Source: Planctomycetota bacterium
GTDB lineage: Bacteria > Planctomycetota > Phycisphaerae > WQYP01
Direction of reading: 5' to 3'
DNA length: 61,913 nucleotides
NCBI GenBank assembly: GCA_021785435.1
Contig: JAJYFE010000004.1
Coordinates: forward strand, 1-61,913
Part shown: in pieces, positions 27,057-50,345 of the stretch
Numbering within the stretch: the stretch's first letter is position 1
Layout of the letters: each line of letters opens with the position of its first letter
Translations under genes and position numbers: made by a program
Notes under the pieces: generated by a model
What the model was told of the DNA's origin: nothing
What the model saw: the letters and a program-made list of their open reading frames with translations, nothing else
Databases searched by the model: none

Positions 27057-27124
27057 GGAAGGTCCCGTACAGGTTCATATGCCCACCTTTGGGATGTTCT
27101 TTCCGGCCCTTGTGCTGATCGGGG

Positions 27125-27530
27125 CTATGTGGCGGGTGCCGGAAGGGCTCGGGCGCTGGCGCGGAAGGGGGCCGGGGCCGCTGGGCCGCGATGAGGCTTC
27201 CGGGATGGTCTAACAGGCACGCCGTGCCACAATGCGAGCACCGCTCGTAGAGCCGTGCCAATAGGTCGGCGAGGAGCAGGTCGATCGCGTTGTTGTGTTA
27301 CGAGCGTCTCCACGAGGAATGCCGCCGCGGCACCGTTGCGGCGCGGTTGGCGGATCGGTTGAACGCGGGGATCATCGCGTTGCAGTCGCTTGGTTGGCGC
27401 AGCAGCGTCCGCCGGTAAGGTTCCGTGGGCGCGGTGCCGTGGGTCATCTCCGCTCTCGGCCGAAGGCCCGTGTACCGCTGCACTTCGTACAGCGACAGCC
27501 TGGAAGCGGACCAGCAGTGGCCCGCCATTG
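27125..27530 (-). pseudogene. Decayed paralogue of the 34065..34817 gene (island-border remnant)
   Basis: The minus-strand reading ...PSDCNAMIPAF...RRS*HNNAIDLLLADLLARLYERCSHCGTACLLDHPGSLIAAQRPRPPSAPAPEP parallels ...ASDPCVTVGVS...GRRLADLLARLYERCSQGGEAGLLYWPGGLAAAPRPPSPFAPSPGP of the 250-aa protein at 34065..34817. It is interrupted by a TAA at 27295-27297. Confidence 0.45.
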
Positions 27531-27726
27531 GCTAAGCTTCGAGTACAGGCGTTTTAGCTTTAGGGGCGGTGTCGGCCGTTGCGAGCGTTCAAGGCCTGCG
27601 ACCCAGCAAGCCAGCCCACCCGAAACTCAAACCCACTGGTGCAAGCACCCGGCTTGCCGATTTTTTTCCAACCCAAGCGCCCGATGTGACAACTATTATT
27701 TTTGTTATATAATAGGAACGTAGTAG

Positions 27727-27755
27727 TTGACTGTAAAGTATATCGGAGTTATAGT
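27727..27755 (+). promoter_or_regulatory. Near-consensus sigma70 promoter abutting the start codon (possible leaderless mRNA)
   Basis: TTGACT (27727-27732), a 17-nt spacer, then TATAGT (27750-27755), set in a conspicuously AT-rich ~100-bp patch. In-frame ATGs follow at 27756 and 27765. Confidence 0.4.
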
Positions 27756-28439
27756 ATGAATGGCATGGAAAAACCTGGCCCAGACCGAGAGGCGCTGCGA
27801 CATCTCGCCGATACCGGTGAAGCGCCGAAAAAGGCGTTCGAGGTGCTGGCCAAGCGGCAGCGGAAACGGCGGGAACTGAGCTTGGAAGTTCTCATGCAGG
27901 AACTGCGGGCCGACGGGGTGGAGATTACCAGAGCCCAGGCTTACTCATTTTTCAAGGAGTTGGAGCGTTGCGGCTGTGGCAGAATTAAACTGGGGCGCGG
28001 CAGTCGCCCCACACGGTTCCGCTGGCGCTACACGATGCGATCCATCGCCCAGTTGGCGCTGGGCCAAACGGACACGGTCGAGATCATGCCGGAGCTGGAC
28101 GCCGAGGAAATAGACAACGGCGAGGGGACAGCCCCGGCGCCGCCCGACAATACAGCGCACCAGGACGGCCCGGCTCTGTGTGAGAAATATGAGAAAGCTA
28201 TGGGCCGGTCCGATCCGCAGGCCCCCGTGCCGTCCCCTCGCGAAGGCGGCATGGGGGACACGGCCACACCCAGTGACCGGGGTATTCGCATCGTGAACTA
28301 TCCATACCCGTTGCGGCCGGGGTTGCTGGTCTCAGTCTCCTTGCCGGTGGATATGACCACGCAGGAGGCGGAGAGGATGGCGGCGTATATCAAAACGTTG
28401 GCCGCGGCCACACCGCAAAAGGCGGCGTGCAGCCCTTAG
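27756..28439 (+). CDS. Hypothetical protein, possibly DNA-binding (only plus-strand gene at the island edge)
   Basis: ORF in the frame of track 27702..28439. N-terminal helical region (ITRAQAYSFFKELERCGCGRIKLGRG), an acidic/Pro-rich linker, and the C-terminal block YPYPLRPGLLVSVSLPVDMTTQEAERMAAYIKTL. Its stop overlaps the stop of the convergent HEPN gene. No family assigned. Confidence 0.5.
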   Translation: MNGMEKPGPDREALRHLADTGEAPKKAFEVLAKRQRKRRELSLEVLMQELRADGVEITRAQAYSFFKELERCGCGRIKLGRGSRPTRFRWRYTMRSIAQLALGQTDTVEIMPELDAEEIDNGEGTAPAPPDNTAHQDGPALCEKYEKAMGRSDPQAPVPSPREGGMGDTATPSDRGIRIVNYPYPLRPGLLVSVSLPVDMTTQEAERMAAYIKTLAAATPQKAACSP

Positions 28440-28819
28440 GGTAGCGGTGGGGCGAATATTTCGGGGTGGTCCTTTTTAAGGCCTTGAAGCGTCTCGGCCA
28501 CAGTACCGTGGACACCCGCCGGATTGTTCATCTCGTCGTCGTAGTCGGCTTGGTTCCTGTACTGGCGTAGGCGCCCCAGCTGCTCCCCCAGCCTTCGTCT
28601 GCCCATATCCGCACTGATTTTCAGCGTACGGACTACTTCTTGATGCACCTCCGCTTTGGTGGAGAACCTATGTCCTTCCGCTTCGAGGAACTGTCGCACC
28701 AAGTTGAACGCGCCGTAATATCCACGGCTGATACCCGCGCGCAGGCGAGCTTCCGCATTTCCGGCCATTGCATGCGGAGAATCGCACAGGAGCAGGAACT
28801 GGCGCCAGTCGAACCCCAT
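28436..28819 (-). CDS. HEPN-domain protein
   Basis: ISRGYYGAFNLVRQFLEAEGHRFSTKAEVHQEVV...LGRLRQYRNQADYD matches the classical HEPN pattern (sRaYYa.fha...G....H......R..adY). Its start is coupled to the upstream gene by TAATG. Confidence 0.65.
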   Translation of the reverse strand: MGFDWRQFLLLCDSPHAMAGNAEARLRAGISRGYYGAFNLVRQFLEAEGHRFSTKAEVHQEVVRTLKISADMGRRRLGEQLGRLRQYRNQADYDDEMNNPAGVHGTVAETLQGLKKDHPEIFAPPLP

Positions 28820-29547
28820 TAGGCATCAAGAAGAAAACAAATCAGGCTCCCCCGACTTTCCGGTTGCTGGAGCCACCATTCTGTGTCGAAACGACCAAGT
28901 TGTGCTAGTGCCCGTTGTGGGTCACCCCCCGGCCTGATGCGCACCAGAAGTTGTGTTAGGTCCGGGAGTTCCGGGTCGGTTTGCAGCTCGAGCATGGCGG
29001 TCGTAAGTGGACGAAAATACTCGCGGATAGGTTCGCGGGCCCGCGCCAGGAGGGTTCCGACGCCCGGGTGCGCGCTAAGAAAGGCACTAATTTGCGCCGC
29101 GCCGTGCGGTACGTAGCCATCGGGAATGACAGCGCTGTCGCGTTGGGCGTCAGCCCTTTGCCGGGCGGCCCTCTGGCTGGCGTCGCCGCAGAATTTTTCC
29201 GAAGCTTCGTCCGCGGGACTGTTTCCCGCGTAGCGCGTTATAGCCACGGCAAAGGCCTGCCAATCGGGTTGGGGCGCGGACCAGGCTGCGACGGTTTCAT
29301 AGGACCAGGTGACGACCAGGCCGCCCACATTCTCCAGTGCGAGCGACTGGGGCAGGCGCGCGTGTGCGGCGTTCAGCGTTTTCGCGGCGTCCCGGATGCC
29401 TCGCTTGTCGTACCGCACGCTCCGCCCGGGGCCGAACCGAAGCTCCGCTATTCCTTTCTCCATTTCCGGCCGCGCGGAAAACAGGGCCGTCGCACTGGCC
29501 GTTGGCCACTCACCGGAGATGCTGCTTCGCGGTAGTTGCTCGATCAT
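28819..29547 (-). CDS. Hypothetical protein X1 (no recognisable domain)
   Basis: The ATG at 29547 forms an ATGA overlap with the stop of the TIGR04255-like gene (tcat at 29544-29547). It ends in a TAATG overlap with the HEPN gene. The longer track ORF (to 29634) would overlap the upstream gene by 90 nt. Confidence 0.55.
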   Translation of the reverse strand: MIEQLPRSSISGEWPTASATALFSARPEMEKGIAELRFGPGRSVRYDKRGIRDAAKTLNAAHARLPQSLALENVGGLVVTWSYETVAAWSAPQPDWQAFAVAITRYAGNSPADEASEKFCGDASQRAARQRADAQRDSAVIPDGYVPHGAAQISAFLSAHPGVGTLLARAREPIREYFRPLTTAMLELQTDPELPDLTQLLVRIRPGGDPQRALAQLGRFDTEWWLQQPESRGSLICFLLDA

Positions 29548-30365
29548 GCTCTGCCCCACCATTGCTTCTGAACCTCGTGCGACGTCAGCCCCAGGAAGAC
29601 GCTGATCAGCGACTCGTGGGCCATGGCAAACCATTCTTTCATCGCCTCGTCTCCGGCCGCCTTCCCGAACCCGCGCGCCACCGACTCCATTATAATCAGC
29701 GGTTGTCCCGATTCCGCGCGGATGGCGGATTGTATCCTTATATGGGCTCGACCAAGCTCCTCCGGCAGTCCGAAGATCAGCCGATGTTCGAACCCCTCCG
29801 GATCGACCATGCGGCCGCGGCCGGGTGCCCTGAAGGCCACGTCCGGAAACACGCGCCTCGCCAACTGCGTGGGTGACACCGCCGCTTCGCTGGCATCAGC
29901 CGCGATGTGGTCAACATAGATCAACTCGTACTGTATGGCCTCGGCCGACCCGAGCTCATATTCGGCGAGAAAACCGCGAAATTCCACCAGGCGCTGCATA
30001 AACTGCACGAAGGTCGCATGATACTGTGGATACACCGTCTGCGCATCGGCCTTTCGCCAGTTGTAGACATAGCGGTCACGCTGTACCTGGATCAGCTTTT
30101 GACCATCCTTGCTCAGGTACCAGGTCCGGGGCAGTGGTGGCAGATTGGATATGGACAGCTGAATACTGGGAGAGGCGCTGCCTTGTTTAAGCTCAATTGT
30201 CGGCGATAAGGGCGGGGCCTCGCCGAATTGCGTAAAATCGGATTTCCATCGATCCCAGAGCACCCCAAGATGGGGTCCCGTCAGCTTCTGCAGCGGCGGG
30301 AAAAGCAGCCCCATCGCCACCTCGGCAACCGGCGGATTTTCAAAGTGCACCGGTTCTGCCAACAT
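29544..30365 (-). CDS. TIGR04255-like uncharacterised family protein (copy 1)
   Basis: 273 aa from the ATG at 30365: MLAEPVHFENPPVAEVAMGLLF... with mid-protein IQYELIYVDHI and a C-terminal WFAMAHESLISVFLGLTSHEV. The layout matches my memory of TIGR04255 and parallels the second copy at 44154..44885. The first 64 codons of the track ORF are Arg/Gly-rich junk. Confidence 0.5.
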   Translation of the reverse strand: MLAEPVHFENPPVAEVAMGLLFPPLQKLTGPHLGVLWDRWKSDFTQFGEAPPLSPTIELKQGSASPSIQLSISNLPPLPRTWYLSKDGQKLIQVQRDRYVYNWRKADAQTVYPQYHATFVQFMQRLVEFRGFLAEYELGSAEAIQYELIYVDHIAADASEAAVSPTQLARRVFPDVAFRAPGRGRMVDPEGFEHRLIFGLPEELGRAHIRIQSAIRAESGQPLIIMESVARGFGKAAGDEAMKEWFAMAHESLISVFLGLTSHEVQKQWWGRA

Positions 30366-30560: not shown

Positions 30561-31553
30561 TCAGCCGCCTTGAGGGCCGGCAGAGAGCGGGGGCGATTGG
30601 CCCGGCGGGATCGCTTCGGTGGCTGCGGCGCTGGGCGAAACAGGCGCGACAGTGACCTCGCTCTCCGCGCCCGGCCCTCGCGTTCCGGGTAGGGTGGATT
30701 CCACGTTGGAGTGGACGTAGCCCGTCAGGTTCTCGAATTTGGCGATGGTCTCCGCTATCTTCTTAAAGGGGACGACGATCGCCATGCCTGCATTTACATT
30801 TCCGCCGCCTGAACGGTCAGCGGCCGTTGTAGGGTCGACTTCATCGATGTCTACCGCTGCGGTGTCGAAGTGGCCGTGGATTAAGCCAAGCAGGAGGACG
30901 TTCGGTCCACCCGACTGAAACCGGAGATTGGCACCGAGCATCCGCACGGGGCCGAGGTTCAAAAACACCGGCGATCCGCTTAAGCCCCCGATCGAGCGGG
31001 CCTCAATCAGGTACGCGTCCATCGCCCCGAACGAAGGAGATACCAACACCTTGTCTTCGGGCATACACGCCAGGTTGCCTATTCTGACAACCGGCTCATT
31101 CTTCCGAGTCCCCGGATGGTAACGCAGCAGGCCTGTGACAAAAACCTCGTCGCCCAGCCCCACCTCGTTGGCTCTGAGCTTTTCTTCGTCGACGCACTGC
31201 GAATAAGGAAAAACAAGATGGTCGAGACCCTCGGGAATCCCCGCCCTCAAGATGGCCACGTCGACGGAGCCGTCGTCGGGATGGGAGAACCAGCCGGCGG
31301 CGTCGGTGGGAACCCATTTGGCCTGGCCGTCGGCGCAATTAACGCGGAGCAGGGGTTGGCCGTTACCCCGGTTTCGCACCCACTCGACCACATGCCTCGC
31401 CGTTACCGCGTAGACGGGATCCGCTCTTCTCCCGCCGGGCGTATCACGCCCGAGGAAGAACACGGAGCCCGCGAAACGGCGTTGCCCGCCGTCCTCGTAG
31501 CCGATAAAGGCAACGCACTTCCGGACCTCATCGGGAACAATCACGGGTCTCAC
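30561..31553 (-). CDS. Trypsin-like (S1/chymotrypsin-fold) serine peptidase
   Basis: Catalytic triad context: VYAVTARHVV (His), DVAIL (Asp), GGLSGSPVFL (Ser). GTG start at 31553. A C-terminal Pro/Ser-rich tail. Confidence 0.7.
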   Translation of the reverse strand: MRPVIVPDEVRKCVAFIGYEDGGQRRFAGSVFFLGRDTPGGRRADPVYAVTARHVVEWVRNRGNGQPLLRVNCADGQAKWVPTDAAGWFSHPDDGSVDVAILRAGIPEGLDHLVFPYSQCVDEEKLRANEVGLGDEVFVTGLLRYHPGTRKNEPVVRIGNLACMPEDKVLVSPSFGAMDAYLIEARSIGGLSGSPVFLNLGPVRMLGANLRFQSGGPNVLLLGLIHGHFDTAAVDIDEVDPTTAADRSGGGNVNAGMAIVVPFKKIAETIAKFENLTGYVHSNVESTLPGTRGPGAESEVTVAPVSPSAAATEAIPPGQSPPLSAGPQGG

Positions 31554-31559: not shown

Positions 31560-31789
31560 TCAACCACCGCGCCGAAATTCCTCCAGCGTGGCATCCTTCA
31601 CTTCCTGCGCCACGATTGGGAAGGTGGACAGAATGTGGGCGAATTCTTCCTCGGTTAAGCCATACAGATGCGCGATGATCGCGTCCAATTCCGCCCGCAG
31701 TTTCAGCCGCTTCGCGGGATCGGTTACGCCGTCCTTGTGGCTTTTCAGACCCACCGACTTGGCCAGCTCATCAAATTCCGGCGTGGTGC
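31560..31789 (-). repeat. MTase 3-prime-end remnant V (direct repeat of 38388-38617)
   Basis: 31633-31789 matches 38461-38617 at 155/157 nt by my manual alignment. The distal 73 nt (31560-31632) are clearly more diverged. Encodes ...GLKSHKDGVTDPAKRLKLRAELDAIIAHLYGLTEEEFAHILSTFPIVAQEVKDATLEEFRRGG (track ORF 31560..31754). Confidence 0.9.
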
Positions 31790-31896: not shown

Positions 31897-32838
31897 CTAC
31901 CGAAACAGCGCCGTAACAGATCCGGTCATTCGCCAACGCGGGCGGTGCGCCACTTCTAACACTTGCTCCAAATTTGGCTTTCGATCCAGTGCCCGTCCGC
32001 GAATCGGTATGCCGCCGCGCTCGATGAAATGCGGATTCGCTTCCGCCGAGGGACCGGGCGATGCAAAATCAACCACAAATAACGGATGATGGCGTCTGAT
32101 CGCCTCATCGCCCGCCGCGAATGTGCCCCCCTCGTTTGCGGATTCCACCAGAATCATCCCGTCGGAAAGACCAATAATGGTGCGGTTGCGTTTCATGGCG
32201 TTGCGCGCGATCCAGGGGAGGCTCGGCGGGAATTGCGAAACAACCAGGTGCTTTCCCCGGCCCAGCACATCGGCAATCTCCTTCTTGACGCGGAAATGTC
32301 GGATGCCCTCGGCCACGACCATGATCGTCGCGCCACCGGCCTCCAGGGTGGCCCGGTGCGCCGCTAAATCCACGCCATGGGCGTAGCCGCTGACCACACA
32401 GATATTCTGGCGGGCCAGGGCCGCGGCAGCGTCGCGCGTGACCGCCAGGCCCTTGTCCGAAGCTTGGCGAGAGCCACAGAATCCCAACGCTGGCAGGTCA
32501 AAAAGTTCAGCCTCGCCTCTGAGGAAAAGAAAGGGTGGCGCCTCATCCCCCAGGATGGCCTTGAGGCGCGCCGGGTAGGCGTCATCTTCGATCCAGAGCA
32601 GCCGGACGCCGTGGAGTTGCAGGTTATCCCATAGCCGGGCCGCCGCGTCCCCTGATTTCCCGACGTTGGCGGCTGCCGGTTCCGAGACACCTAACACCTC
32701 CCTCAGGCGGGGCGGGTCCAAGCGAACGGCGTCGGCCGGGGAAATGCCTTCACCTGCGCAGTACCGGGCCAGGTGCCGCAGGGCCGCTTCCCCGACCCCT
32801 TTCGCCAGGATGAACTGTAACAGGGGAAGCGCGTTCAT
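31897..32838 (-). CDS. DprA/Smf-family (SLOG Rossmann) protein
   Basis: YPARLKAILGDEAPPFLFLRG...LGFCGSRQASDKGLAVTRDAAAALARQNICVVSGYAHGVDLAAHRATLEAGGATIMVVAEGI...RNRTIIGLSDGMILVESANEGGTFAAGDEA follows the DprA signature closely. The ATG is coupled by ATGA to the upstream PRTase gene. Confidence 0.85.
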   Translation of the reverse strand: MNALPLLQFILAKGVGEAALRHLARYCAGEGISPADAVRLDPPRLREVLGVSEPAAANVGKSGDAAARLWDNLQLHGVRLLWIEDDAYPARLKAILGDEAPPFLFLRGEAELFDLPALGFCGSRQASDKGLAVTRDAAAALARQNICVVSGYAHGVDLAAHRATLEAGGATIMVVAEGIRHFRVKKEIADVLGRGKHLVVSQFPPSLPWIARNAMKRNRTIIGLSDGMILVESANEGGTFAAGDEAIRRHHPLFVVDFASPGPSAEANPHFIERGGIPIRGRALDRKPNLEQVLEVAHRPRWRMTGSVTALFR

Positions 32839-33686
32839 TGGTTATCCGTGTCGCTCATTGATTTTACGCACACCAACCCGAAAACATATTTTGCCCCGAG
32901 GCTCTTCAAAAACTTAGCGCAACACCATAGCGTGACGCCGGACTGATATAGATCATCCACAACGGCCACCGTCCTGCCCCTTATGTCGGCATCGATTCGA
33001 ACGCACTGGCCGCGTTCGTATAACTCGCACCAGTGCTTCATCTTTTCCACGAAAGGCAAATTTTTCAGATAGGATTTTCCACAGCATAGGCTGCTTTGAA
33101 CAAGGGGAACGCCCTTGTCTTTCGCGACGCGCATTGCCAATTCTCTGCCGAAATTATACTTTTCCAGGTCGGATGGGACACCGGTGATCAGCAGATTGGT
33201 CTTTTCCTCGGGCGGTACGGGCAGGTAATCAAACGCCTCGACCATCGCCCTGCTCACAACGGAGCAATAGGCTTGGGACTGCCGGTATTTGGCCTGATAC
33301 AACGCCTCGCCAAACAATGTCCGCCTTTCCGAGTTTGGATCGTAGTTAAAAGACAGCCCCATGCAGAAATCCAGCTCTTGCGAAAAGCCGGGAGCGATGT
33401 GCCTGCTCAATCCGATCAGCACATATTCCTGGAATCTCTGTCTCCAGTTCTCGATCTGTTCAAGGTTTGCCTGGTTGAGTGCGCCGGCCGGAAACCAAAG
33501 GTATTTCATCTTGCCCCCCTTGGATACACGCCAGCCATTTGGGGCCAGCTTAGAGATTTGCGGGCAGTGGTAATCGAAAAGCCCCGGATAGGTGTCGCAG
33601 GAAACGAACAGGCTTATCGCACCATCGTCGTATTCGTTGAGATGACATTCGAGCTGTGACCGGCTGTGGGTGGTCCGTGGGATCAT
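32835..33686 (-). CDS. Phosphoribosyltransferase-domain protein
   Basis: C-terminal type-I PRTase PRPP loop RTVAVVDDLYQSGVTLW. The ATG at 33686 has GGAG 4 nt upstream. The N-terminal ~180 aa have no recognised domain. Confidence 0.7.
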   Translation of the reverse strand: MIPRTTHSRSQLECHLNEYDDGAISLFVSCDTYPGLFDYHCPQISKLAPNGWRVSKGGKMKYLWFPAGALNQANLEQIENWRQRFQEYVLIGLSRHIAPGFSQELDFCMGLSFNYDPNSERRTLFGEALYQAKYRQSQAYCSVVSRAMVEAFDYLPVPPEEKTNLLITGVPSDLEKYNFGRELAMRVAKDKGVPLVQSSLCCGKSYLKNLPFVEKMKHWCELYERGQCVRIDADIRGRTVAVVDDLYQSGVTLWCCAKFLKSLGAKYVFGLVCVKSMSDTDNQ

Positions 33687-33921: not shown

Positions 33922-34071
33922 TCAATTGGTGCGTTTGAAGTCCTCAAGCGTCGCCCGTTTCACTTCCTCTGGCACGATCGGAAACGTCCCCAATATGTGG
34001 GCGAATTCTTCCTCGGTTAAGCCGTACAGATACGCGATGATCGCGTCCAATTCCGCCCGCAGTTTCAGCCG
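33922..34071 (-). repeat. MTase 3-prime-end remnant IV
   Basis: 33971-34071 is 101/101 identical to 38437-38537 by my manual alignment. The distal tail 33922-33970 is diverged. Encodes LKLRAELDAIIAYLYGLTEEEFAHILGTFPIVPEEVKRATLEDFKRTN. Confidence 0.9.
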
Positions 34072-36542: not shown

Positions 36543-36730
36543 GGGGGCTGCGCTCCCTTAAATCTGCGAAATTCCTCCATCGTCGTGTGTTTCACTTCCT
36601 GCGGCACGATCGGAAACGTCGCGAATATGTGCGCGAATTCCTCTTCGGCTAAGCTGTGCCAACGGGCGATAATGGCGTCGAGCCCGGCGCGGAGCCGGGG
36701 CCGCCCGAATCTTCCATCCCTTGGCGAGGC
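36539..36730 (-). repeat. MTase 3-prime-end remnant III (diverged)
   Basis: My translation gives RDGRFGRPRLRAGLDAIIARWHSLAEEEFAHIFATFPIVPQEVKHTTMEEFRRFKGAQPP*, against the MTase tail KDGVTDPAKRLKLRAELDAIIAYLYGLTEEEFAHILGTFPIVPQEIKDATLAEFTRHV. Its frame ends in a TGA that overlaps the ATG of the HipA-like gene. Confidence 0.7.
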
Positions 36731-42728: not shown

Positions 42729-42748
42729 GGGCGCTCCGTCGGATGACA

Positions 42749-42853: not shown

Positions 42854-42882
42854 TTCCGTGGGGCTAACCCCCAGCCCGCCGG

Positions 42883-43065
42883 TCAGTCTTTCCCCCGTAA
42901 CCCGAGCGAACAGATGATCCGCGGATCGAAATTGGCCGGGTCTTCCGTGACGTTGCACAAGTCGTTATCGGCTCTTAAATCGCTCACCAACCGGCCCAGC
43001 GCCTCATCATCCATGCCTTCCCGGATGCAGCCGGCCGGGCGCCCTGTTTCGATCGCCGTACTCAT
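42883..43065 (-). repeat. Helicase 3-prime-end remnant (direct repeat of 46946-47080)
   Basis: 42905-43023 matches 46962-47080 at 118/119 nt by my manual alignment. Encodes ...REGMDDEALGRLVSDLRADNDLCNVTEDPANFDPRIICSLGLRGKD, against the helicase C-terminus ...REGMDDEALGRLVSDLRADNNLCNVTEDPANFDPRIICSLGLRG. Confidence 0.9.
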
Positions 43066-43127: not shown

Positions 43128-43784
43128 CTACAGTTCCGGCGCATGGTGGGTCAGGTGCTTGAAGATGTGCACCGCTAAGTGTCCGAAGTTCCCTTGCATC
43201 GCTTGCTTCATAATGAAAGTGTAATCGGAATGATCCGGGCGCTGACGGACCCTAAATTGCGGCGGTACGCCAAACCGCAATAGGCCCCAAGCCCACAGCA
43301 GACGGGACAGCCGGCCGTTCCCATTGATAAAAGGGTGCACCTGTATAAACCGCCCGATCATCGTGCCGAGGATAATGGCCAATCTCTTGGCGCGTTCCTG
43401 TGGTGACAGCTCCGGCCAGTCGAGCTCCAGTGCAACGGTGTATCGGCGCAGGTGATCGAACAGCCGCTCCATCTCGGAAACCACGGTTTGGTACGGTGCG
43501 CCGGGGGTTCCTTCCACCCGGACATCTGTTTGCAGGCAAGGGCGTAGCGGATCAATTTGCCGATAGTTTCCGGCGTAATAGTCGAGTGGGACGTGGTGTG
43601 TGAACAGGGTGCGGTGCCAGTCACGGCAGGCCGGCGAATCGACGATTTTTCGCTTGGCGGCCGCCGCAGCCGCTCGATAGGCCGCGGCGACGGAGGCGCG
43701 GAAAGTTCCTTCCCTGGTCTCGGGGCCGTCCGAAGACCACTCCGGACAATTACCGGTGTAGGGCCTGGTCATCGTCATCCGCAA
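43128..43784 (-). CDS. Fic/DOC family protein
   Basis: Canonical Fic motif HPFINGNGRLSRLL. Overlaps the upstream small gene by about 35 nt. Confidence 0.85.
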   Translation of the reverse strand: MRMTMTRPYTGNCPEWSSDGPETREGTFRASVAAAYRAAAAAAKRKIVDSPACRDWHRTLFTHHVPLDYYAGNYRQIDPLRPCLQTDVRVEGTPGAPYQTVVSEMERLFDHLRRYTVALELDWPELSPQERAKRLAIILGTMIGRFIQVHPFINGNGRLSRLLWAWGLLRFGVPPQFRVRQRPDHSDYTFIMKQAMQGNFGHLAVHIFKHLTHHAPEL

Positions 43785-44157
43785 GCAGGTTAATTTGTTC
43801 GTCGGTCAGATCCGATGCATATGGAGCGGCGGCCGGATCTCGGAAGTGTTCCGACGCCTTTTGTGCCAATTTGTCGAAATCGAGTCCTTGCTGCCTGACG
43901 ATCTGTCGCATGGACGACTCGGCGCCTGCGAAATCAATGGCCATCGGATTCCATGGGGACGCCGCGGAGGCGGGACATTCAGTATGACCGTAGGGCCACT
44001 GCCCGATCGTCAGAGGCTGCTGGATGTCGCGCCTGATTGAACCTACACGCTCACCCAGTTCCTTTACTGTTGACATCCAATCCCAGTATCCCGTCTCCGG
44101 GATGCTGGCAGGTGGCTTCCGCGAACCAGCCGCGTATTCCTCTGCAACCAATATCAT
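43750..44157 (-). CDS. Hypothetical protein X2 (acidic C-terminus; candidate Fic partner)
   Basis: 135-aa ORF. Its ATG forms an ATGA overlap with the stop of the TIGR04255-like gene (44154-44157). No recognised domain. Confidence 0.5.
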   Translation of the reverse strand: MILVAEEYAAGSRKPPASIPETGYWDWMSTVKELGERVGSIRRDIQQPLTIGQWPYGHTECPASAASPWNPMAIDFAGAESSMRQIVRQQGLDFDKLAQKASEHFRDPAAAPYASDLTDEQINLLADDDDQALHR

Positions 44158-44885
44158 CGAATCAGCTCCCTGGCTTTATCCGTGATCGACCCCTCAAAAA
44201 ACCTGTTCTCGGTATCGTGAAGCAGTTCCAATCGTTCCGAAAAATTATAGGGAATGTTCCCGGTCTGGAATACGTCTATATCCACAAGCACGGACGCCAC
44301 CCCCTCCCTTGTCGGCGGAACTAACGCCTCATTACATATAATCATTCCCGGTAAGTCCGCCTGCGGGATTTGTAATTGCATGGCAAAGCCGCTCAGCCCC
44401 GCCGGCAGTCCGCCGCCGATTTCCGGCGCGGTGGAAAGGTAATCCTTAAAATCCCGAAATGGCAACGGCAAGTCAAACCGGTTGGTGTAGCGCACCGCCA
44501 ACCGCATGATTTCCTTGGGCTTCACGATCGCCTCATACCACCGCCAGAGGCGCAAAAATTCATCGCGAAGTTTTTCCCACGTTTCGTACGGCGTCAGCCG
44601 ACTAACGGTCAGCCCTTCCTGTCGCGTCTGGAACACATACTTGTGCTCGGCACGGCCACCATGGGAATAACCGATTTGCCTGAATTCCGGTTTCGCAGCG
44701 CCGCCGGGCGCCACTTGAATCATGATATTGCCAGTGAGGACTGGGGTTACAGTGGGATAATCCGCCTTGATCTCCGCTGAGGGGGAATTAAAGGCGGCCC
44801 AGTCAATCCAAGTGTCGTTCTTCACCTGGACATCAATCAGGGCCTGAATAATGGGCGCCCGGCTATAGTGTGTTCTTTGCGGCAT
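44154..44885 (-). CDS. TIGR04255-like uncharacterised family protein (copy 2)
   Basis: 243 aa: MPQRTHYSRAPIIQALIDVQV..., RLAVRYTNRFDLPLP, VLVDIDVFQ, HDTENRFFEGSITDKAREL. Same layout as the 29544..30365 product. Confidence 0.5.
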   Translation of the reverse strand: MPQRTHYSRAPIIQALIDVQVKNDTWIDWAAFNSPSAEIKADYPTVTPVLTGNIMIQVAPGGAAKPEFRQIGYSHGGRAEHKYVFQTRQEGLTVSRLTPYETWEKLRDEFLRLWRWYEAIVKPKEIMRLAVRYTNRFDLPLPFRDFKDYLSTAPEIGGGLPAGLSGFAMQLQIPQADLPGMIICNEALVPPTREGVASVLVDIDVFQTGNIPYNFSERLELLHDTENRFFEGSITDKARELIR

Positions 44886-45092
44886 TCGCGGTGATCCTAC
44901 CCGGTGCTAAGGTGACCCGCAACTGGCAAGCTACTTCGCCCTCCCAGCCAAATGGTTCGATGGACAACTCGCGGAGCTTGCACTGACGCGGCAGGTCGCG
45001 CGTGGCGGAAAAATTAAGGGCATGAATCCGGCGCTCCGTGGTAATCGAGATCGGGCCATCCGGCGAAGGTCAGGCTGGTCCCGGCGTAACCG

Positions 45093-45620
45093 TCACTCCA
45101 ACCGGAACCCTAAGCGCTCGCGTGCACTTATCGGGGGATCGAGGCTCGCGTTAAGCTTGATACCCACCGCGCGCACAAAATGGTGATCGCCGATGCAGGC
45201 GATATTCAACTTCGCGCAGACCTCCGGAATGCCGTAGCGATCGGGGCCGCGGTTCTTGACGGTTTCCCGCGTCACCACCGTGGCCCCTGCTTCCCACGCG
45301 GAGGCGATCACCCACGGATCAGCCAGGTCGCGGCCCTTTCGCGTGTCGACAAGGCGCGGGTAGCCGAGGAGAATTTCCCGCATCCGCCTTTGCATCGGCT
45401 CGCTCAGCGGCTCGAATAACCCCCTCGTGCCATTGGCCCATTTGAAAAGGCCATCTTCCCTTTTCTCCAGTTCACGCCGAACTTCTTCCGGGCAAAAGAT
45501 GATCCCCTTACCGGCGAGATCGCGGAGGATGTCCCAATAGTCCGGGCACAGATCAGGGGCGTAATATCCCGTCCACGGGCGGATCAGAGCGTTTGTATCG
45601 AGGCAATAGCGCGTGTTCAA
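45093..45620 (-). CDS. DUF4411 PIN-like nuclease
   Basis: RYCLDTNALIRPWTGYYAPDLCPDYWDILRDLAGKGIIFCPEEVRRELEKREDGLFKWA fits the DUF4411 pattern. The TTG start overlaps the stop of the ImmA/IrrE gene (TTGA). Confidence 0.65.
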   Translation of the reverse strand: MNTRYCLDTNALIRPWTGYYAPDLCPDYWDILRDLAGKGIIFCPEEVRRELEKREDGLFKWANGTRGLFEPLSEPMQRRMREILLGYPRLVDTRKGRDLADPWVIASAWEAGATVVTRETVKNRGPDRYGIPEVCAKLNIACIGDHHFVRAVGIKLNASLDPPISARERLGFRLE

Positions 45621-46798
45621 CGGACGCCCCCGGACACGCCCACGCGCTGGAGAAGCTGTGCCATTCTCGGAAACAGGTTGACCTTCAGATCAAGAAGGTC
45701 GGACGCCTCGGTCGCCGTGGCGTAGTCATCGTAGTACGCCCGCAGCACATCCTCCGTGAACGCACGCCCGTTATATGCAAGCCTCAGCGTGAAATAGCTG
45801 GGGCTGCCTTCACGTCGCGGCCGGCCCGCCCGCTGCGCCCATCTCTGCGCCAAGCTTTGATGTAACCGCTCGTAATCGGATGAGGAAATCGAGCGCCGCT
45901 CGAGCAGCATGCGCGCGATGACCTCCTCGCTGACCCTAAGCCGATCGGAGAGGTGCGCGATCAGCTCGGGGCGGGACAAGGCACGCGCCCGACCCCGTTC
46001 GCCCTCGAAGGCCTCTGGCGCCACCAGCAGGCCGGCGGCGGTGCGGTTGCAGAATGTCTCTATCCGTGCCGCGTCGCCCAGCGCCTCGCCGCCGGTCAGG
46101 GCAAGGTTCGATACACCTGATTGGCCCAGCCAGATGTGCGCCAATTCATGGGCCAACGTGAACAGCTGTCCCGCTACGGCGTCTTTCCCATTGATCCATA
46201 TGATCGGCGCCCATGGATCGCTGAGCGCCAGTCCGCGCGCCTCCGGCAGCTCGATCCCGGGGTCGCGGCGAACGCAGACCCCCGCTTCTTCCGTGCGGGC
46301 GACCCAGTAGCGCAGCGCCTCCGCCTGCGTCCGGCGGTTCCGGTGCCAGAATATATCTACACGCAGGGTGGACCGAATCGCGCGGGACAAGGCCGCGGCA
46401 TCCCGGTCTTGCCCCGAGCTGACGAAGGCCAGCTCGGATTCCCCGGTGTCCCGGCGGTATTCCGCAAGCCACTTCTGCCGGTAGTCCAGAGAGCGCGCCA
46501 AGAAAAGAAATTCCGGGCTGAAATGTCGTGGCACGTCGCCGGGAAGCCGGCGAAAATCACGCGGGGTGGCAAAATCCAGCGGCGGCTTGGACACATAGAA
46601 TACCGCCAGCGGCCGCCTATAGACCTGTGCCGCTTTGCGCGCCTGCGCCAGGGACGGATGGTCGGTCCCCGCCTCCCAGTGATCCAGCGCTTCCGACGTG
46701 ACGCCTATGCACTCGGCCGCCACCGTCTTGTCGTAGCCCGCCTGCTCGCGCGCCCATTTGAGAACTGCGGGCGTTATTAGGGCTTGGATGTGTGACAC
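45617..46798 (-). CDS. XRE-HTH + ImmA/IrrE zinc metallopeptidase fusion
   Basis: N-terminal HTH (LKWAREQAGYDKTVAAECIGVTSEALDHWEAG) and the HExxH motif in FTLAHELAHIWLG. Confidence 0.8.
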   Translation of the reverse strand: MSHIQALITPAVLKWAREQAGYDKTVAAECIGVTSEALDHWEAGTDHPSLAQARKAAQVYRRPLAVFYVSKPPLDFATPRDFRRLPGDVPRHFSPEFLFLARSLDYRQKWLAEYRRDTGESELAFVSSGQDRDAAALSRAIRSTLRVDIFWHRNRRTQAEALRYWVARTEEAGVCVRRDPGIELPEARGLALSDPWAPIIWINGKDAVAGQLFTLAHELAHIWLGQSGVSNLALTGGEALGDAARIETFCNRTAAGLLVAPEAFEGERGRARALSRPELIAHLSDRLRVSEEVIARMLLERRSISSSDYERLHQSLAQRWAQRAGRPRREGSPSYFTLRLAYNGRAFTEDVLRAYYDDYATATEASDLLDLKVNLFPRMAQLLQRVGVSGGVR

Positions 46799-46945
46799 GG
46801 CCTATTTTCCCCTTTCCATCGCCCGCATGTCGATCGGGGCTTTTTTAGGCGGACGCTGGCCGCCGGCGGTTCCACTGTGCATCGCGGTTGATCCTAACGG
46901 AGGCGCGCGGCCTTCGCAAACTACCCCTGCACTGCTACGGTTGTA

Positions 46946-49900
46946 CTACCCCCGCAACCCCAGCGAACAGATGATCCGCGGATCGAAATTGGCCGGGTCT
47001 TCCGTGACGTTGCACAAGTTGTTATCGGCTCTTAAATCGCTCACCAACCGGCCCAGCGCCTCATCATCCATGCCTTCCCGCATCCGGCGGGCCAGCTGAT
47101 CGCGGGCGGTATCCTTCAGCGGATAGTGGTATATCTCCTCGATCACTTTGTCCAGGTCCGGGGCTTGGTACAACGTATTGGCCGTGCGGGCGTGGAAGGC
47201 CGTCAACCGGGCATAAAGCTGGCGGCGGACGCTGCGCGCGCCGCCCAGTTGGCCGCCGACGCGGCTTTGGTCTCGGGCCGCCAGCTCGAGAGCCTTGTCA
47301 ACGAGCGCATGGTGCTCCGGCAGACGCGGCGCGGCCGGTTCGTCCGGCGCGCAGGCCGCGGTGTTCAAAATGTCGCGGGGTGATTCGGTCACAATTTGTT
47401 TTTGGTTGTCCAGCTGGATCAACGTATTGTTTCCCGGCGAACTCTGAATAAAGGCGATCACCCCGTTGGATGCGCCGCGGCCTGGCGCCGCCCCGCGGGT
47501 GGAATAGATAACGTCGGGCAGCCCCTGGACGGCGGCGGCGAGCTGGGGGTTGTTTTTGACGGCGTTTTGCCAGATTTCATAAGCCACCGAGGATATGTCC
47601 ACCTCCGCTTCATCCTGCTCGTCGAGCGCGTGGGCCGTTTCGTTGTACAAATTCCGCAGCAGCGGCAATTCTTTTACCGGATCGCCCTCGATGAACATTT
47701 CATCCGAGCCGATCACCTCGCCCTCCTCCCGCTGCCGTTGCCGGATGCGCTGATGCAGCCGAATGATGCGTTCCACCCCGTCGGCGGGCAGAAAACTGTA
47801 ACAGAGAATCCGCTCCGCCCGCTGGCCGATGCGGTCCACGCGTCCCACGCGCTGGATCAGGCGAATCAGCGCCCAGGGTAAATCGTAATTGACGATAATG
47901 GCGCAGTCCTGCAGATTCTGGCCTTCGCTTAGCACGTCCGTGCTGATGAGCACGCGCAATTCCTCGGCGGCAGCAACTTTACCGCGCGCGGCGTTGCTCT
48001 CCGGGCTGAAGCGATGGGCCAGCGCGGTGGGATTTTCACTTTGGCCCGTGACCGCGGCAAAATTGCCGATGCCGGCTCGCCTTGTCGAGTCGCCTTCTTC
48101 GGCGACCTGCTGAAGCTGGCGCTGCACATAATTGGCGGTGTCGGCGAACTGGGTGAAAATCAGCACCTTCTCGCGTGGATGGGTCTGCTGCAGCAGCTGA
48201 AGTAGTTTCTGCAGTTTGCGGTCATGGCGCGGGTTCCAGGGGCCGATCAGCGCTTGGATCTTCTCCAGCGCAGCAATATCCGCCCTTAGATGCTCCGCCA
48301 GGTCCGCCTCGAAAAACGCCGCCGGGAGCCAGCGGTATGATCGGTTAGCGCGGCAGTCGGCATAGAGGTCTTCGATCTGCTCGGCGGACTCGACCACCGG
48401 CGTTGCATTTTCGTGGTCGTCCTCGTCGACGCCAAACAAGTCATCGGCGTCGGTCAGGCTCGTTTCAAAGATGGCCGCATTACTGGAACCGATCGGAACC
48501 TCCAGGCCATGCTCCAGGGCGTATAGCGCCACTTTATCGCGCAGAATGTGGCGGTCCATGGTCAGTTCAAACGCAGCCCCGCTGCTTTCCAGACGCTTAA
48601 ATAAGCTGGTGCGGCAGAAGCCGATAAGGTGCTTTCCCGCGCGGGCGAGGTCGTCGATGACGGCCTGGTGTTCGGCGGTGCTGTCCGGCCAGTGCAGCGC
48701 CGCTTTGACATAATTGCCCAACCCGTAACGCGGCAGGTGCAGGGAATTGACAGCGCTAACCGTCGGGTCGCTGAACATGCGGGCGTATTGGTCGTGGGGG
48801 TCTTTCTCATCGATAGGAAATGTCAGGCTCTTGGGAACCCGGTCGGGGAAATAAGATCGCCGGCCGTCGTGGAAGCATAGGTACGCCCGGCCCTGATGAC
48901 CATCCGTTCGGGCATAGTTCTTTTTGATAGAGCCGCGCGTGCGGCGGATAAGAAATTGGTCCATCAGCAGCCGCCAGTCCTCGGCATGGTCGCTTTTTTC
49001 GAAGGCCACGATGGTGTGGGGATCCGCCTGGGTCCGGGCGGAAAGCACGTCGAGTCCCTCTTGGCGGATGAAATGCTCCGGCCGCACAGGCAACTGGCGA
49101 TCCGGGGCCAGAAAAAGCCGCAACTGGCTCGACAGGTCCAGGAGAGTCTTATTGTAGGGCGTGGCCGTCAGGAGAATCACCGCACTTTTGTTGCGCTCCA
49201 GGTAATCGCGAATGGCCTTGTATTTTGCGGTCTCGCGGTTGCGCAGATTGTGGCTTTCATCAATTAATACCGTACGGTATCGCTTCTCGTCCTTAAGCTG
49301 ACGATCCACGAGACTAAGCGACAGGATTTTACCGATGATATGGTACTGATAGAGATAATCCTCCCACATGGGGACCAGGTTGCGCGGGCAGATAATAAGC
49401 GTTTCGTGTTGCTTTTCTTCCTGCAGCGCCTTGGCGACGGCGGAACCCATCAGCGTTTTGCCCAGCCCCACCACGTCGCCGATCATCACCCCGCCATGGC
49501 GGCTGATCTTACCCATCGCCCGCTTCACCGCCTCGATTTGGAAATCCAGCAGGCGGTTGCCGAATTCGTCGGGAATATCGAACTGCTCTTCACTCAGACG
49601 GGCATCGGCGGAAAGGTGGTACGCCATCTTCAAGTAAATATGGTACGGCGGCGGCTGGGTTTCCCTGGCCCAACTGGTCTGCACAATCTCCAGAAGCTCC
49701 GCCGAGATATCCCAACACAGCCGGTCCTCCCAGCGGGCCTGAAACCACGCGGCCAGCTTGGCGCAGGCATCCTGATCCGGCACGTCAACGTTCAGTTCCC
49801 CTTGATGGCACAGGCCGGCCATCGTCAAGTTGCTGCTGCCGAGATAACCAATCCTGGGGCTCAAGGGGTCGGGACGGAACAGCAGGTAGAGCTTGGCATG

Positions 49901-50314
49901 CAACGGATGACGCAGAAACAGTTTGACGATCAGTTTCCCGGCGCGAATCTGCCCCGCCAGGCGCTGCAGGCCAGCCTCGTCGGCATCGCTGGGCGCGCCG
50001 ATCTGCAATTGCCGGCGGAACGTTTCCGCCAGCGATTTTTTCAGGCGCATAGCCTCGGCGTTGTCGGGGACGTTGGCGGCGGGGCTGGAGCGCAACAGGG
50101 TCCGTAAATCTTCTTCGGGAGGCCGCTGCATGCCCACCAGCAGCCGGCAACAATGTCCCTCGCCACCGGACCATTTCTCCATGCAGTCAGCGAGGTTTTT
50201 CCAGCCGCGCAGATTAAAGTAACCGACGCAAAAATCGGCCCGATCCGATAATTGCATCGCCTGGCGCAGGGTCGGCAGGAGCGGTTGCTCGATGTTATCG
50301 AATATTTGCGGCAT
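46946..50314 (-). CDS. PLD-family nuclease domain fused to SNF2-family helicase
   Basis: N-terminal HKD motif LHAKLYLLFRPD...GSSNLT. SNF2_N motifs GDVVGLGKT, LIDESHNLRN, LLTATP. Helicase_C LISTDVLSEGQNLQDCAIIVNYDLPWALIRLIQRVGRVDRIGQ. The ATG at 50314 has AAGGGA about 6 nt upstream; the track start is TTG at 50329. Confidence 0.85.
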   Translation of the reverse strand: MPQIFDNIEQPLLPTLRQAMQLSDRADFCVGYFNLRGWKNLADCMEKWSGGEGHCCRLLVGMQRPPEEDLRTLLRSSPAANVPDNAEAMRLKKSLAETFRRQLQIGAPSDADEAGLQRLAGQIRAGKLIVKLFLRHPLHAKLYLLFRPDPLSPRIGYLGSSNLTMAGLCHQGELNVDVPDQDACAKLAAWFQARWEDRLCWDISAELLEIVQTSWARETQPPPYHIYLKMAYHLSADARLSEEQFDIPDEFGNRLLDFQIEAVKRAMGKISRHGGVMIGDVVGLGKTLMGSAVAKALQEEKQHETLIICPRNLVPMWEDYLYQYHIIGKILSLSLVDRQLKDEKRYRTVLIDESHNLRNRETAKYKAIRDYLERNKSAVILLTATPYNKTLLDLSSQLRLFLAPDRQLPVRPEHFIRQEGLDVLSARTQADPHTIVAFEKSDHAEDWRLLMDQFLIRRTRGSIKKNYARTDGHQGRAYLCFHDGRRSYFPDRVPKSLTFPIDEKDPHDQYARMFSDPTVSAVNSLHLPRYGLGNYVKAALHWPDSTAEHQAVIDDLARAGKHLIGFCRTSLFKRLESSGAAFELTMDRHILRDKVALYALEHGLEVPIGSSNAAIFETSLTDADDLFGVDEDDHENATPVVESAEQIEDLYADCRANRSYRWLPAAFFEADLAEHLRADIAALEKIQALIGPWNPRHDRKLQKLLQLLQQTHPREKVLIFTQFADTANYVQRQLQQVAEEGDSTRRAGIGNFAAVTGQSENPTALAHRFSPESNAARGKVAAAEELRVLISTDVLSEGQNLQDCAIIVNYDLPWALIRLIQRVGRVDRIGQRAERILCYSFLPADGVERIIRLHQRIRQRQREEGEVIGSDEMFIEGDPVKELPLLRNLYNETAHALDEQDEAEVDISSVAYEIWQNAVKNNPQLAAAVQGLPDVIYSTRGAAPGRGASNGVIAFIQSSPGNNTLIQLDNQKQIVTESPRDILNTAACAPDEPAAPRLPEHHALVDKALELAARDQSRVGGQLGGARSVRRQLYARLTAFHARTANTLYQAPDLDKVIEEIYHYPLKDTARDQLARRMREGMDDEALGRLVSDLRADNNLCNVTEDPANFDPRIICSLGLRG

Positions 50315-50345
50315 GCGATCCCTTACCAACCTAATTTCCTCAAGG

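Follow-up and report, generated by a model that had tools for sequence, protein, structure and literature searches.

The region described here spans positions 27057 to 50345 of a 61,913-nt stretch of DNA (contig JAJYFE010000004.1 of assembly GCA_021785435.1, referred to in its full length as the window) that comes from a metagenome-assembled genome (MAG) of the Phycisphaerae (Planctomycetota); the nearest relatives of its cdsA gene are also found in Phycisphaerae MAGs. This region is a defence island, and probably a composite one that started from a resident two-gene operon resembling a restriction-modification system and grew by serial end-displacement. A preliminary description, made from the sequence alone, had regarded the 23 kb as a single island wedged between a pseudopilin gene and cdsA. 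This view was not supported as it stood: the core pair is a conserved operon with host-like GC content at third codon positions (GC3), and the remainder appears to have been added in several events marked by relics of gene ends. About eight toxin-antitoxin or defence-type modules seem to split and extend the core pair. As predicted from domain matches, they include a Shosta/PsyrTA-like pair, a PDC-M03 pair, an ImmA/DUF4411 pair, TIGR04255 with Fic, TIGR04255 with a protease, and an SDH protease pair. This cargo probably acts independently of the restriction system, or backs it up, as toxin-antitoxin or abortive-infection-type defence.

The resident operon consists of the following features, the two genes being 5 kb apart in the window.

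46946..50314, minus strand: core gene 1, PLD(HKD) nuclease-SNF2 helicase, 1122 aa (Pfam and PADLOC)
38388..41912, minus strand: core gene 2, Type IIG/Eco57I-like N6-adenine methyltransferase (MTase), 1174 aa (Pfam and PADLOC)
38278..38362, no strand assigned: 27-nt tandem repeat directly after the MTase stop codon, filling the gap to the relic F38.0

Both genes were recognized in scans with the Pfam, NCBIfam and PADLOC hidden Markov models, which bore out their earlier designation as PLD-SNF2 and N6-adenine MTase genes. The helicase matched PLDc_2, SNF2-rel_dom, Helicase_C and ResIII of Pfam and the HKD+Snf2 model of PADLOC (5e-56), and the MTase matched Eco57I (4e-23), MmeI_Mtase and N6_Mtase of Pfam and the PADLOC model REase_MTase_IIG (6e-110). 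Related loci, numbered with the prefix L, were collected by searching species-representative genomes and metagenomes with the window MTase, and were then probed with proteins of the window or of the core pair. The PLD-SNF2 and MTase genes were neighbours in 166 loci, in which the MTase homologues were 50-73% identical and which span Planctomycetota, Acidobacteriota, Chloroflexota, Pseudomonadota, Cyanobacteriota, Verrucomicrobiota, Nitrospirota and other phyla. The median spacing between the ends of the tblastn matches was about 33 nt and exceeded 400 nt in 30 loci only; because the core genes are immediately adjacent, most loci have no room for more components. A profile-based rescan for closer MTase relatives gave 0 new members at 65% identity or above.

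Judged from this gene order, the PLD-SNF2 and MTase genes are a conserved two-gene operon that is normally contiguous. The GC3 of the two genes in the window is at the level of the flanks (z about 0). N6-adenine MTase motifs, a nuclease-helicase partner and conserved adjacency were all found, as in methylation-based restriction systems. From the families of its two proteins, the pair is predicted to be a methylation-based, ATP-dependent restriction system, in which the MTase would mark self DNA and the helicase-nuclease would attack unmarked DNA. In about 30 related loci, the slot between the core genes is taken by small genes of toxin-antitoxin or defence type. In other phyla, when their sequences were read by eye, these included VapC-like, zeta-like, DUF3800-like (four loci), AlbA_2-like and OLD-like ATPase genes as well as Y1 transposases, and homologues of PDC-M03 occupy the slot in L098 and L156. 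The number of 27-nt repeats behind the MTase gene varies among assemblies of the same species, being 3 in the window, 3 in L313 (4837-4930) and 2 in L312 (9335-9400).

The evidence for stepwise growth lies in truncated copies of the ends of both core genes, which are scattered over the island.

31573..31789, minus strand: F31.6, MTase 3' end relic with 72 codons in frame and a stop and tail of its own, between the protease candidate and the DprA-like gene
33938..34071, minus strand: F33.9, MTase 3' end relic, between the phosphoribosyltransferase (PRTase) gene and the open reading frame (ORF) 34065-34817
36567..36694, minus strand: F36.6, diverged MTase 3' end relic with an open frame and its own stop, between the kinase and the SDH protease
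38023..38135, minus strand: F38.0, frameshifted MTase 3' end relic, just upstream of the small ORF preceding the SDH protease
42892..43036, minus strand: helicase 3' end relic, the last 45 codons with their own stop, between the Fic and RAYT-like genes
44944..45015, minus strand: MTase 5' end relic of 72 nt, approximately codons 35-58, upstream of the TIGR04255/Fic module

A repeat search revealed four extra copies of the last 110-215 nt of the MTase gene, all of them direct and in register (alignment and blastn, E 1e-15 to 1e-88), and each sits in a gap between modules. F31.6 is 93% identical over 215 nt to 38403-38617; when aligned to the live MTase gene, it shows 2 mismatches in about 165 nt up to ...CACAT, after which the identity drops to about 72%. 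F33.9 is identical, over 33964-34071, to 38430-38537 at 108/108 nt, up to ...GTGCC, and then continues with a different tail and stop. The live MTase end is accordingly a nested mosaic, which is resident up to CACAT, common with F33.9 up to GTGCC, and unique beyond. F36.6 and F38.0 show 75-79% identity to each of the other copies over their full length (F38.0 is about 76% identical to 38402-38505). Three of the MTase relics keep the reading frame ...LDAII..LYGLTEEEFAHI..FPIVPQEVK...EF, each with a different short tail and its own stop; the tails found at MTase ends are TRHV, RRGG, KRTN and RRFKGAQPP, each directly followed by a stop.

The helicase relic is 95% identical over 145 nt to 46949-47093 (blastn E 3e-61), with 1 mismatch in the first ~110 nt, and diverges only in the last 15 nt. 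The MTase 5' relic is 75% identical to 41766-41837 and 77% identical to the start of the MTase gene in L103. The relics differ in age, as three of them carry 0, 1 and 2 mismatches and two others show about 25% divergence, and the stop codons of cargo genes directly abut relics. Since no duplicates of helicase 3' ends or MTase 5' ends, other than tandem repeats, were found in about 170 other loci, these two relics are so far unique to the window. Two further approaches contributed little: a tblastx self-comparison of the island gave mostly noise and was not used, and a search of a genome collection with a degenerate DNA pattern of the relic core gave 3 matches only, the pattern being too specific. 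Public gene callers annotate F31.6 (31560-31754, 64 aa) and the helicase relic (42883-43065, 60 aa) as small genes, which, if translated, would yield free C-terminal peptides of both core proteins.

The same arrangement was observed in other genomes. L097 and L101, the DNA of which is 93% identical, differ in what follows the MTase gene. The order in L101 is MTase, TcmP-like gene, DUF5131 gene and relic. L097 has the MTase gene with a new tail, a 437-aa gene, a 74-nt relic (86% identical to the live end), and then the TcmP-like and DUF5131 genes. The L097 relic retains the tail, stop codon and intergenic region of L101 and is still joined to the TcmP/DUF5131 cargo. The two loci differ by exactly one insertion and represent a before-and-after pair. 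Moreover, same-strand duplicates of the MTase 3' end were found downstream of the gene in 9 loci among 185 MTase 3' ends with at least 400 nt of downstream sequence, namely L097, L101, L156, L180 and L244 (Planctomycetota clade, 67-73% identity), L277 (Kiritimatiellia), L281 and L288 (Chloroflexota), and L121. The cargo enclosed in the duplicate loci is of conflict type and includes MNT/HepT, RelE-like, Mrr_N + RhuM, AlbA_2/Schlafen + ParA-like ATPase and DUF5131 genes. L121 is a tandem duplication of the whole MTase gene: this Clostridia MAG holds two tandem full-length copies at 10001-18578, which are 52-54% identical to the window MTase, with 3' ends 99.6% identical and more fragments downstream, a different route to repeated MTase ends.

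The sequences themselves show the repeats, their breakpoints, the constant neighbourhood of the two core genes and the insertion that separates L097 from L101. We propose the following sequence of events, in which both the recombination pathway and the order of insertions are inferred. DNA from a related locus would arrive with the same core-gene end and different downstream genes. Homologous recombination would take place within the final 60-215 nt of the resident gene, which are conserved, and the other end of the donor would be joined non-homologously slightly further upstream. The live gene would thereby keep its reading frame and acquire a new tail and new neighbours, while the old gene end, with the old cargo attached, would be displaced downstream as a 5'-truncated relic. 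The donor could be either linear, by homology-facilitated illegitimate recombination on a replicating chromosome, or circular, by Campbell-type insertion.

Applied to the window, one such event would have placed the PRTase/DprA-like pair and left the relic F31.6. Another would have imported a ready-made array, consisting of the tandem repeats, F38.0, the SDH-protease pair, F36.6 and the PDC-M03 pair, with F33.9 remaining as its relic. The segment from about 38430 to 34072 is suggested as such an import because F38.0 and the next two genes are collinear with the live MTase 3' end and the same genes in L103 (73% over 1.4 kb), and because F36.6 and F38.0 are diverged throughout. At the 3' end of the helicase gene, a 4,057-bp block with the ImmA/DUF4411 pair and the TIGR04255/Fic module would have been inserted; the MTase 5' relic inside this block would be the trace of a mirror-image event. 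The predicted ancestral state, with the order helicase-REP-RAYT-REP-MTase, exists in L101, L150 and L180.

Several observations weigh against growth by end-displacement or demand additional assumptions. In the same species, none of the contigs with identical flank proteins showed the locus in an empty or intermediate form; the events are therefore reconstructed and not observed, as no strain with fewer cassettes was found. F36.6 and F38.0, diverged over their full length, fit only with the extra assumption that a pre-formed array was imported. The relic behind the DUF5131 gene in L101 is missing from L097, which needs an extra deletion or insertion of about 140 nt. A duplicate of the helicase 3' end was found neither in the other 168 loci nor at the PDC-M03 slots of L098 and L156, so that many insertions would have occurred without a relic or would have another origin. 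Finally, a junction located upstream of the exchange point requires a circular donor or a second copy of the chromosome.

The arrangement itself is consistent across samples. Exact-protein look-ups with cdsA, the pseudopilin and the SDH protease retrieved the same genes on contigs from NCBI, ENA and Logan, and contigs with identical flank proteins from other samples had the same content at both borders, with no empty site seen. Because independent assemblies share the arrangement, the island is not an assembly artefact. More distant relatives of cdsA in 80 species-representative genomes (the nearest 55-65% identical) shared no neighbour genes with the window, not even sucA.

The main rival to end-displacement is site-specific accretion, which we regard as unlikely. 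Small integrative elements would have used the 3' end of the MTase or helicase gene as attB, with an attP carrying a replacement 3' end, and would have piled up in tandem; the integrase would have acted in trans or would since have been lost, as in streptococcal cis-mobilisable elements. Prophages that integrate into the 3' ends of protein genes bring a replacement 3' end in their attP, and it is established that an integrase inserting into a gene end classically leaves behind an intact gene and a direct duplicate of its 3' end. The relics agree with this in being direct-oriented and in register at their 3' side. Furthermore, the Tn1806 family of integrative and conjugative elements, which are 50 kb long, conjugative and equipped with serine integrases, has been proven to target MTase genes, Eco57I-type and SNF2-fused ones among them (PMC12942858). 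These elements thus resemble the island in that foreign DNA enters MTase genes of restriction systems (Eco57I-type, SNF2-associated). However, insertion of the Tn1806 type splits the MTase target and leaves 4-bp repeats (PMC12942858), whereas the cassettes of the island are 1-4 kb long, come with no integrase that we could find, and leave the target gene intact. No recombinase was found in the island, nor in the cargo scanned from six relic-bearing related loci. The exchange points also vary (...CACAT, ...GTGCC and the extreme end of the helicase gene), as do the 5' limits of the relics, which range from 57 to 215 nt, and cargo stop codons abut relics as non-homologous joints would give.

It is improbable that the island is an ordinary horizontally acquired one, the whole 23 kb having arrived as one block and its internal repeats being the incidental decay of local duplications. 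The sharp borders, with 31 nt to cdsA, would suit such an arrival, as would the unrelated contexts in which the core operon is found elsewhere (the flank proteins of the window had no match in 132 related loci tested) and the same content in all contigs with identical flank proteins. Yet GC3 is host-like for the core genes and uneven among the modules, where z ranges from -4.7 to +2.5 (the strongest values are -4.7, -3.5, -3.3, -2.8 and +2.5). The relics are of different age, units of relic and cargo are collinear with arrangements that other genomes have in live form, and the outer borders lack direct repeats. This explanation allows for the later arrival of a finished array but leaves the formation of the array unexplained.

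Capture driven by a transposase was considered as well. The preliminary description had named a REP-associated tyrosine transposase (RAYT) as the sole mobility-type gene. The relevant features are located between the core genes.

42183..42728, minus strand: Y1 (RAYT-like) transposase gene, sub-threshold matches
41959-41986, 42747-42774 and 42828-42854, no strand assigned: REP-like hairpins CCGCCGGGTTTATCCCGGCGG around the RAYT-like gene

This is indeed the only transposase-like gene of the island, but its family scores are below the curated thresholds (Pfam Y1_Tnp, E 6e-4, score 20.3 vs 23; NCBIfam REP_Tyr_transpos, 32 bits vs a cutoff of 80). The hairpins occur at three sites (six strand matches) against 0.01 expected, with 0 elsewhere in the window, and inverted palindromic copies flank the gene as in a REPtron. 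Homologues with 62-68% identity stand in the same slot in L098 (8917-9468), L101 (6424-6978), L150 (9056-9616) and L180 (2930-3478). The gene thus occupies this slot in at least five loci of the Planctomycetota, and its divergence is about that of the core genes. Arrays of 40-43-nt REP-like repeats lie near the RAYT-like gene in L098 (9490-9723), L135 (9501-9903) and L180 (2577-3819). It is unusual that a supposedly domesticated host gene travels within a restriction operon.

That the Y1 transposase and the REP hairpins moved or captured the cassettes is very improbable in our view. The conserved slot in the window and four other loci, and REP-like hairpins or arrays near some module borders, would speak for it; however, the relic junctions do not coincide with REP hairpins, and besides the weak family scores, no RAYT homologue was found in the fetched sequence of L097, L156, L244, L277, L281 and L288 (tblastn, E <= 1e-6). 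An integron was rejected, as no intI integrase was found and the repeats are coding gene ends instead of attC hairpins. Of the marks of an integrase-mediated genomic island, a recombinase gene at one end, a tRNA or tmRNA gene and att repeats at the outer borders were looked for and not found. The island proteins gave 0 matches to tyrosine or serine recombinase families of Pfam, ARAGORN detected 0 tRNA or tmRNA genes in the whole 61.9-kb window, the domain scan of large flank ORFs likewise found no recombinase families, and the repeat search found no repeat that pairs the outer borders.

The cargo that would have been brought in by end-displacement comprises the following genes, given from the left border to the helicase gene.

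28436..28819, minus strand: 127-aa ORF, possibly HEPN-like (weak; PADLOC PDC-M05B, 4e-5)
28819..29547, minus strand: ORF of about 242 aa, no Pfam, PADLOC or NCBIfam match, start-stop coupled to its neighbours (TAATG, ATGA)
29544..30314, minus strand: TIGR04255-family protein (NCBIfam TIGR04255, 2.9e-12, above cutoff)
30561..31544, minus strand: candidate serine protease, PDC-S45 (PADLOC, 4e-10)
31897..32838, minus strand: DprA-like (SLOG) protein, PsyrA/ShosA-type antitoxin candidate (Pfam DNA_processg_A, 2e-44)
32835..33686, minus strand: PRTase-domain protein, ShosT/PsyrT-type toxin candidate (PADLOC PsyrT, 9e-9; ShosT, 3e-5)
34065..34817, minus strand: 250-aa ORF of uncertain coding status (72% GC, GC3 z +2.5), with its stop codon inside F33.9
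34828..35601, minus strand: PDC-M03B protein, earlier called HIRAN-like (PADLOC PDC-M03B, 4.8e-62)
35598..36542, minus strand: HipA-like kinase, PDC-M03A (Pfam HipA_C, 4e-11; PADLOC PDC-M03A, 3e-81)
36649..37671, minus strand: SDH-type ClpP-like serine protease (Pfam SDH_protease, 6e-19)
37679..37924, minus strand: 81-aa ORF paired with the SDH protease, with a 58% identical homologue at the same position in L103
43128..43772, minus strand: Fic-domain protein (Pfam Fic, 1e-9; PADLOC PDC-S04, 6e-10, and SoFic, 3e-6)
43750..44157, minus strand: 135-aa ORF flanked by the TIGR04255 and Fic genes, without a match in Pfam, PADLOC or NCBIfam
44154..44885, minus strand: TIGR04255-family protein (NCBIfam TIGR04255, 1.3e-28)
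45093..45620, minus strand: DUF4411 (PIN-like) toxin candidate (Pfam DUF4411, 2e-36)
45617..46798, minus strand: helix-turn-helix (HTH) and M78 (ImmA/IrrE) peptidase, RmrA-like (Pfam Peptidase_M78, HTH_3)

From 28436 to 50314 the minus strand carries all 20 sizeable ORFs, as had been noted before, and the overlaps interpreted as translational coupling are present (TAATG at 28819; ATGA at 29544, 32835, 35598 and 44154; TTGA at 45617). At least six distinct system types were recognized in the 23 kb by PADLOC, Pfam and NCBIfam, which agrees with a dense, co-directional defence and toxin cluster without an integrase or tRNA gene; several independent systems within a few tens of kb are what characterizes a defence island. 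The modules assigned by PADLOC are the PsyrTA/Shosta-like pair, PDC-M03 A+B, PDC-S45, the PDC-S04/SoFic-like Fic protein, the Type IIG MTase, HKD+Snf2 and a weak RmrA-like match.

The DprA-like SLOG, HipA-like kinase, Fic, PIN/DUF4411 and ImmA/IrrE designations of the preliminary description stood up in the Pfam scan. The DprA-like protein also matched PADLOC PsyrA (2e-56) and ShosA (3e-40), and the PRTase gene overlaps its gene by ATGA, forming an overlapping two-gene pair as the PADLOC models for Shosta and PsyrTA expect. The PRTase call itself found weak support (Pfam Pribosyltran, E about 1e-3, in addition to the PsyrT match). In contrast to PsyrT, the island protein misses the RecQ-like helicase part, its match covering only model positions 539-685 of 689; it also resembles ShosT weakly and has no helicase domain by Pfam. 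The two PDC-M03 components are adjacent and overlapping, again as PADLOC expects (A 3e-81, B 5e-62). The B component had been taken for a HIRAN protein, for which there was no Pfam or PDB support, and its single-sequence AlphaFold model, with a predicted confidence (pLDDT) of 43, was of no use. The HTH-peptidase gave weak partial matches to 12 PADLOC models of RmrA (best 5e-10), the component that is paired with an RmrT toxin in Rosmer, and its DUF4411 partner had no PADLOC match.

Other designations fared less well. The HEPN call for 28436-28819 has, next to the PDC-M05B match, a PDB HEPN chain at E 0.16 and no Pfam match, and was not sustained. As to the two serine protease folds that had been proposed, the SDH/ClpP-like one was confirmed by Pfam SDH_protease. 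The trypsin-like one was not: the candidate at 30561-31544 contains TARHV, DVAIL and GLSGSPVF motifs (His/Asp/Ser-type) in the right order when read by eye, has no Pfam or PDB match, and its single-sequence AlphaFold model (pLDDT 36) was unusable. A rerun of Pfam at E <= 5 on nine unassigned ORFs yielded nothing useful, and a PDB sequence search with three unassigned proteins gave nothing significant.

Parts of the cargo recur in L103. There, a homologue of the SDH protease (71-74% identical) lies immediately downstream of the MTase gene, and the TIGR04255/135-aa/Fic triplet is kept immediately upstream of it (72/41/67% identity). L103 also carries, at 15681-17093 and downstream of the SDH-protease cassette, an ORF resembling a group II intron reverse transcriptase (YADD motif by eye). 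In the window, one TIGR04255 gene (44154-44885) is start-stop coupled downstream to an ORF of no family and the Fic gene, and the other (29544-30314) follows the protease candidate across a 3-nt gap. TIGR04255, an uncharacterised family, may repeatedly serve as a partner in conflict systems of two or three genes. Five independent assemblies, L082-L086, stop inside the TIGR04255/ORF/Fic module (contig ends at ~16.7-17.4 kb, corresponding to ~43.8-44.5 kb of the window), which may reflect strain heterogeneity.

The left border can be explained only partly. The following features were found between 27057 and the first minus-strand gene.

27088..27280, minus strand: left-border relic, similar to an internal part of ORF 34065-34817
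27686..27755, plus strand: AT-rich promoter patch with two sigma-70-like sites, 5' of the plus-strand gene
27756..28439, plus strand: 227-aa gene without a family match (Pfam, PADLOC and NCBIfam)

The decayed gene fragment and the AT-rich promoter patch that had been described at this border are therefore both present, and they account in part for 27057-27755. The relic is 76% identical to ORF 34065-34817 over 136 nt (blastn), or about 190 nt with tblastx, with 23/21/24 substitutions at the three codon positions; since the substitutions are even over codon positions, the pair carries no coding signal. ORF 34065-34817 had no family match (Pfam, PADLOC, NCBIfam) and is annotated as a gene by public annotations. 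Because of its 72% GC, its lack of a family or of homologues and its codon-position-even differences from the left-border relic, it is perhaps no gene; it may be relic DNA that codes for nothing and takes its stop codon from F33.9. The promoter-like sites are GTGACA-16-TATAAT (11/12) and TTGACT-17-TATAGT (10/12). The gene behind them, convergent with the first minus-strand gene, is the sole exception to the common orientation near this border. Its homologues (39-40% identity) in L098 (13835-14443) and L156 (13788-14414) lie just past the MTase array on the strand of the MTase gene; in the window, the gene is inverted and has its own strong promoter-like sites. A terminator scan gave counts that were not above those of shuffled sequence.

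The right border is as abrupt as had been stated, with 31 nt between the stop of cdsA (the ORF interval begins at 50346) and the helicase ATG (50314). The ORFs of both flanks are housekeeping genes. Upstream are genes for an RND efflux system, a K+ channel, a pyruvate:ferredoxin oxidoreductase-like protein and a type II secretion / type IV pilus cluster terminating in two pseudopilin-like genes; downstream are cdsA, sucA, sucB, a MiaB-like gene and a GDP-mannose dehydratase gene. An AAA_14 + DUF4143 ATPase gene (21322-22566), the GC3 of which is slightly low (z -1.5), breaks the secretion/pilus cluster between the T2SSE and T2SSF genes; ATPases of this type are often found on mobile or defence elements. 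Within the long ORF, upstream of the N-terminal methylation motif of the pseudopilin, there is a 45-nt direct repeat (25906-25950 and 26027-26071) whose copies are 121 nt apart and 91% identical.

Arrays of displaced gene ends are known from polymorphic toxins. For the Rhs, contact-dependent inhibition (CDI; cdiA-CT/cdiI) and Vibrio cholerae type VI secretion system (T6SS) arrays, a homology anchor combined with an illegitimate joint has been proposed, by which the old module is shifted downstream, and whole T6SS or orphan arrays may later be transferred as blocks by homologous recombination (PMC5361080). Displacement and orphan modules in these three systems are attributed to Jackson 2009, Poole 2011 and Koskiniemi 2014, as cited in Kirchberger 2017 (PMC5361080). 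The island shares with these arrays a full-length anchor gene followed by 5'-truncated direct copies of its 3' end, alternative ends with their own cargo, sharp breakpoints, and the newest module beside the live gene. However, a polymorphic-toxin anchor with cognate immunity cargo was not found: the anchor is the MTase gene and once its helicase-nuclease partner, the displaced tail has 4-10 residues in place of a toxin domain, and the cargo consists of unrelated defence or toxin-antitoxin modules instead of cognate immunity genes. The mirror-image 5' relic also sets the island apart.

Toxin-type genes inside or beside methylation-based restriction operons are likewise known, such as PrrC inside the Type IC EcoprrI locus and BrxU in a BREX island (PMC12707154). 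These are single fixed insertions for which a functional link has been shown, whereas the island contains many unrelated modules and a physical record of serial insertion. The nearest described system to the core pair is the Type-2 'BREX-related' (BR) system, which has an N6-MTase and an HKD-nuclease and Swi2/Snf2 helicase effector and is defined by a DUF499 AAA+ ATPase and DUF3780 (PMC12839542). Both share the HKD domain fused N-terminally to SNF2 and the N6-adenine MTase partner, and both are predicted to be ATP-dependent and restriction-modification-like. Because DUF499 and DUF3780 are absent from the Pfam matches of the island, we treat the core pair as an unnamed restriction-modification-like module. 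In the literature that we searched, we found neither a name nor an experimental study of this module, nor a description of end-displacement for restriction-modification genes.

A further suggestion, which we put forward tentatively and hold to be somewhat doubtful, is that restriction-modification genes serve as 'addictive anchors' that build defence islands without a dedicated recombinase. Loss of the MTase would be lethal as long as the nuclease partner persists, and therefore only insertions that restore the gene end would survive. Each event would leave a homologous relic beside the displaced cargo, and cargo flanked by relics would become a cassette that ordinary homologous recombination could excise, shuffle and pass between genomes having the same MTase family. 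Such an exchange of cassettes would work like an integron without an integrase. If this is true, 'flanked by MTase relic' would offer a new route to defence genes of no known family. In the window, the candidates would be the partners of TIGR04255, the plus-strand gene 27756-28439 and the ORFs 28819-29547 and 43750-44157; L097 would add its 437-aa protein.

The comparison defines a widespread two-gene PLD-SNF2 and Type IIG-like MTase module across many phyla. Most defence islands have no known assembly route, and many lack an integrase; this locus provides a readable record of growth, which consists of dated relics of anchor-gene ends, sharp breakpoints, and a before-and-after pair in two related genomes. 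If end-displacement is general, it would explain why toxin-antitoxin and abortive-infection genes are so frequent in and beside restriction operons, and its signature, a live gene with 5'-truncated copies of its end downstream, would allow both the process and new defence genes to be found in metagenomes.

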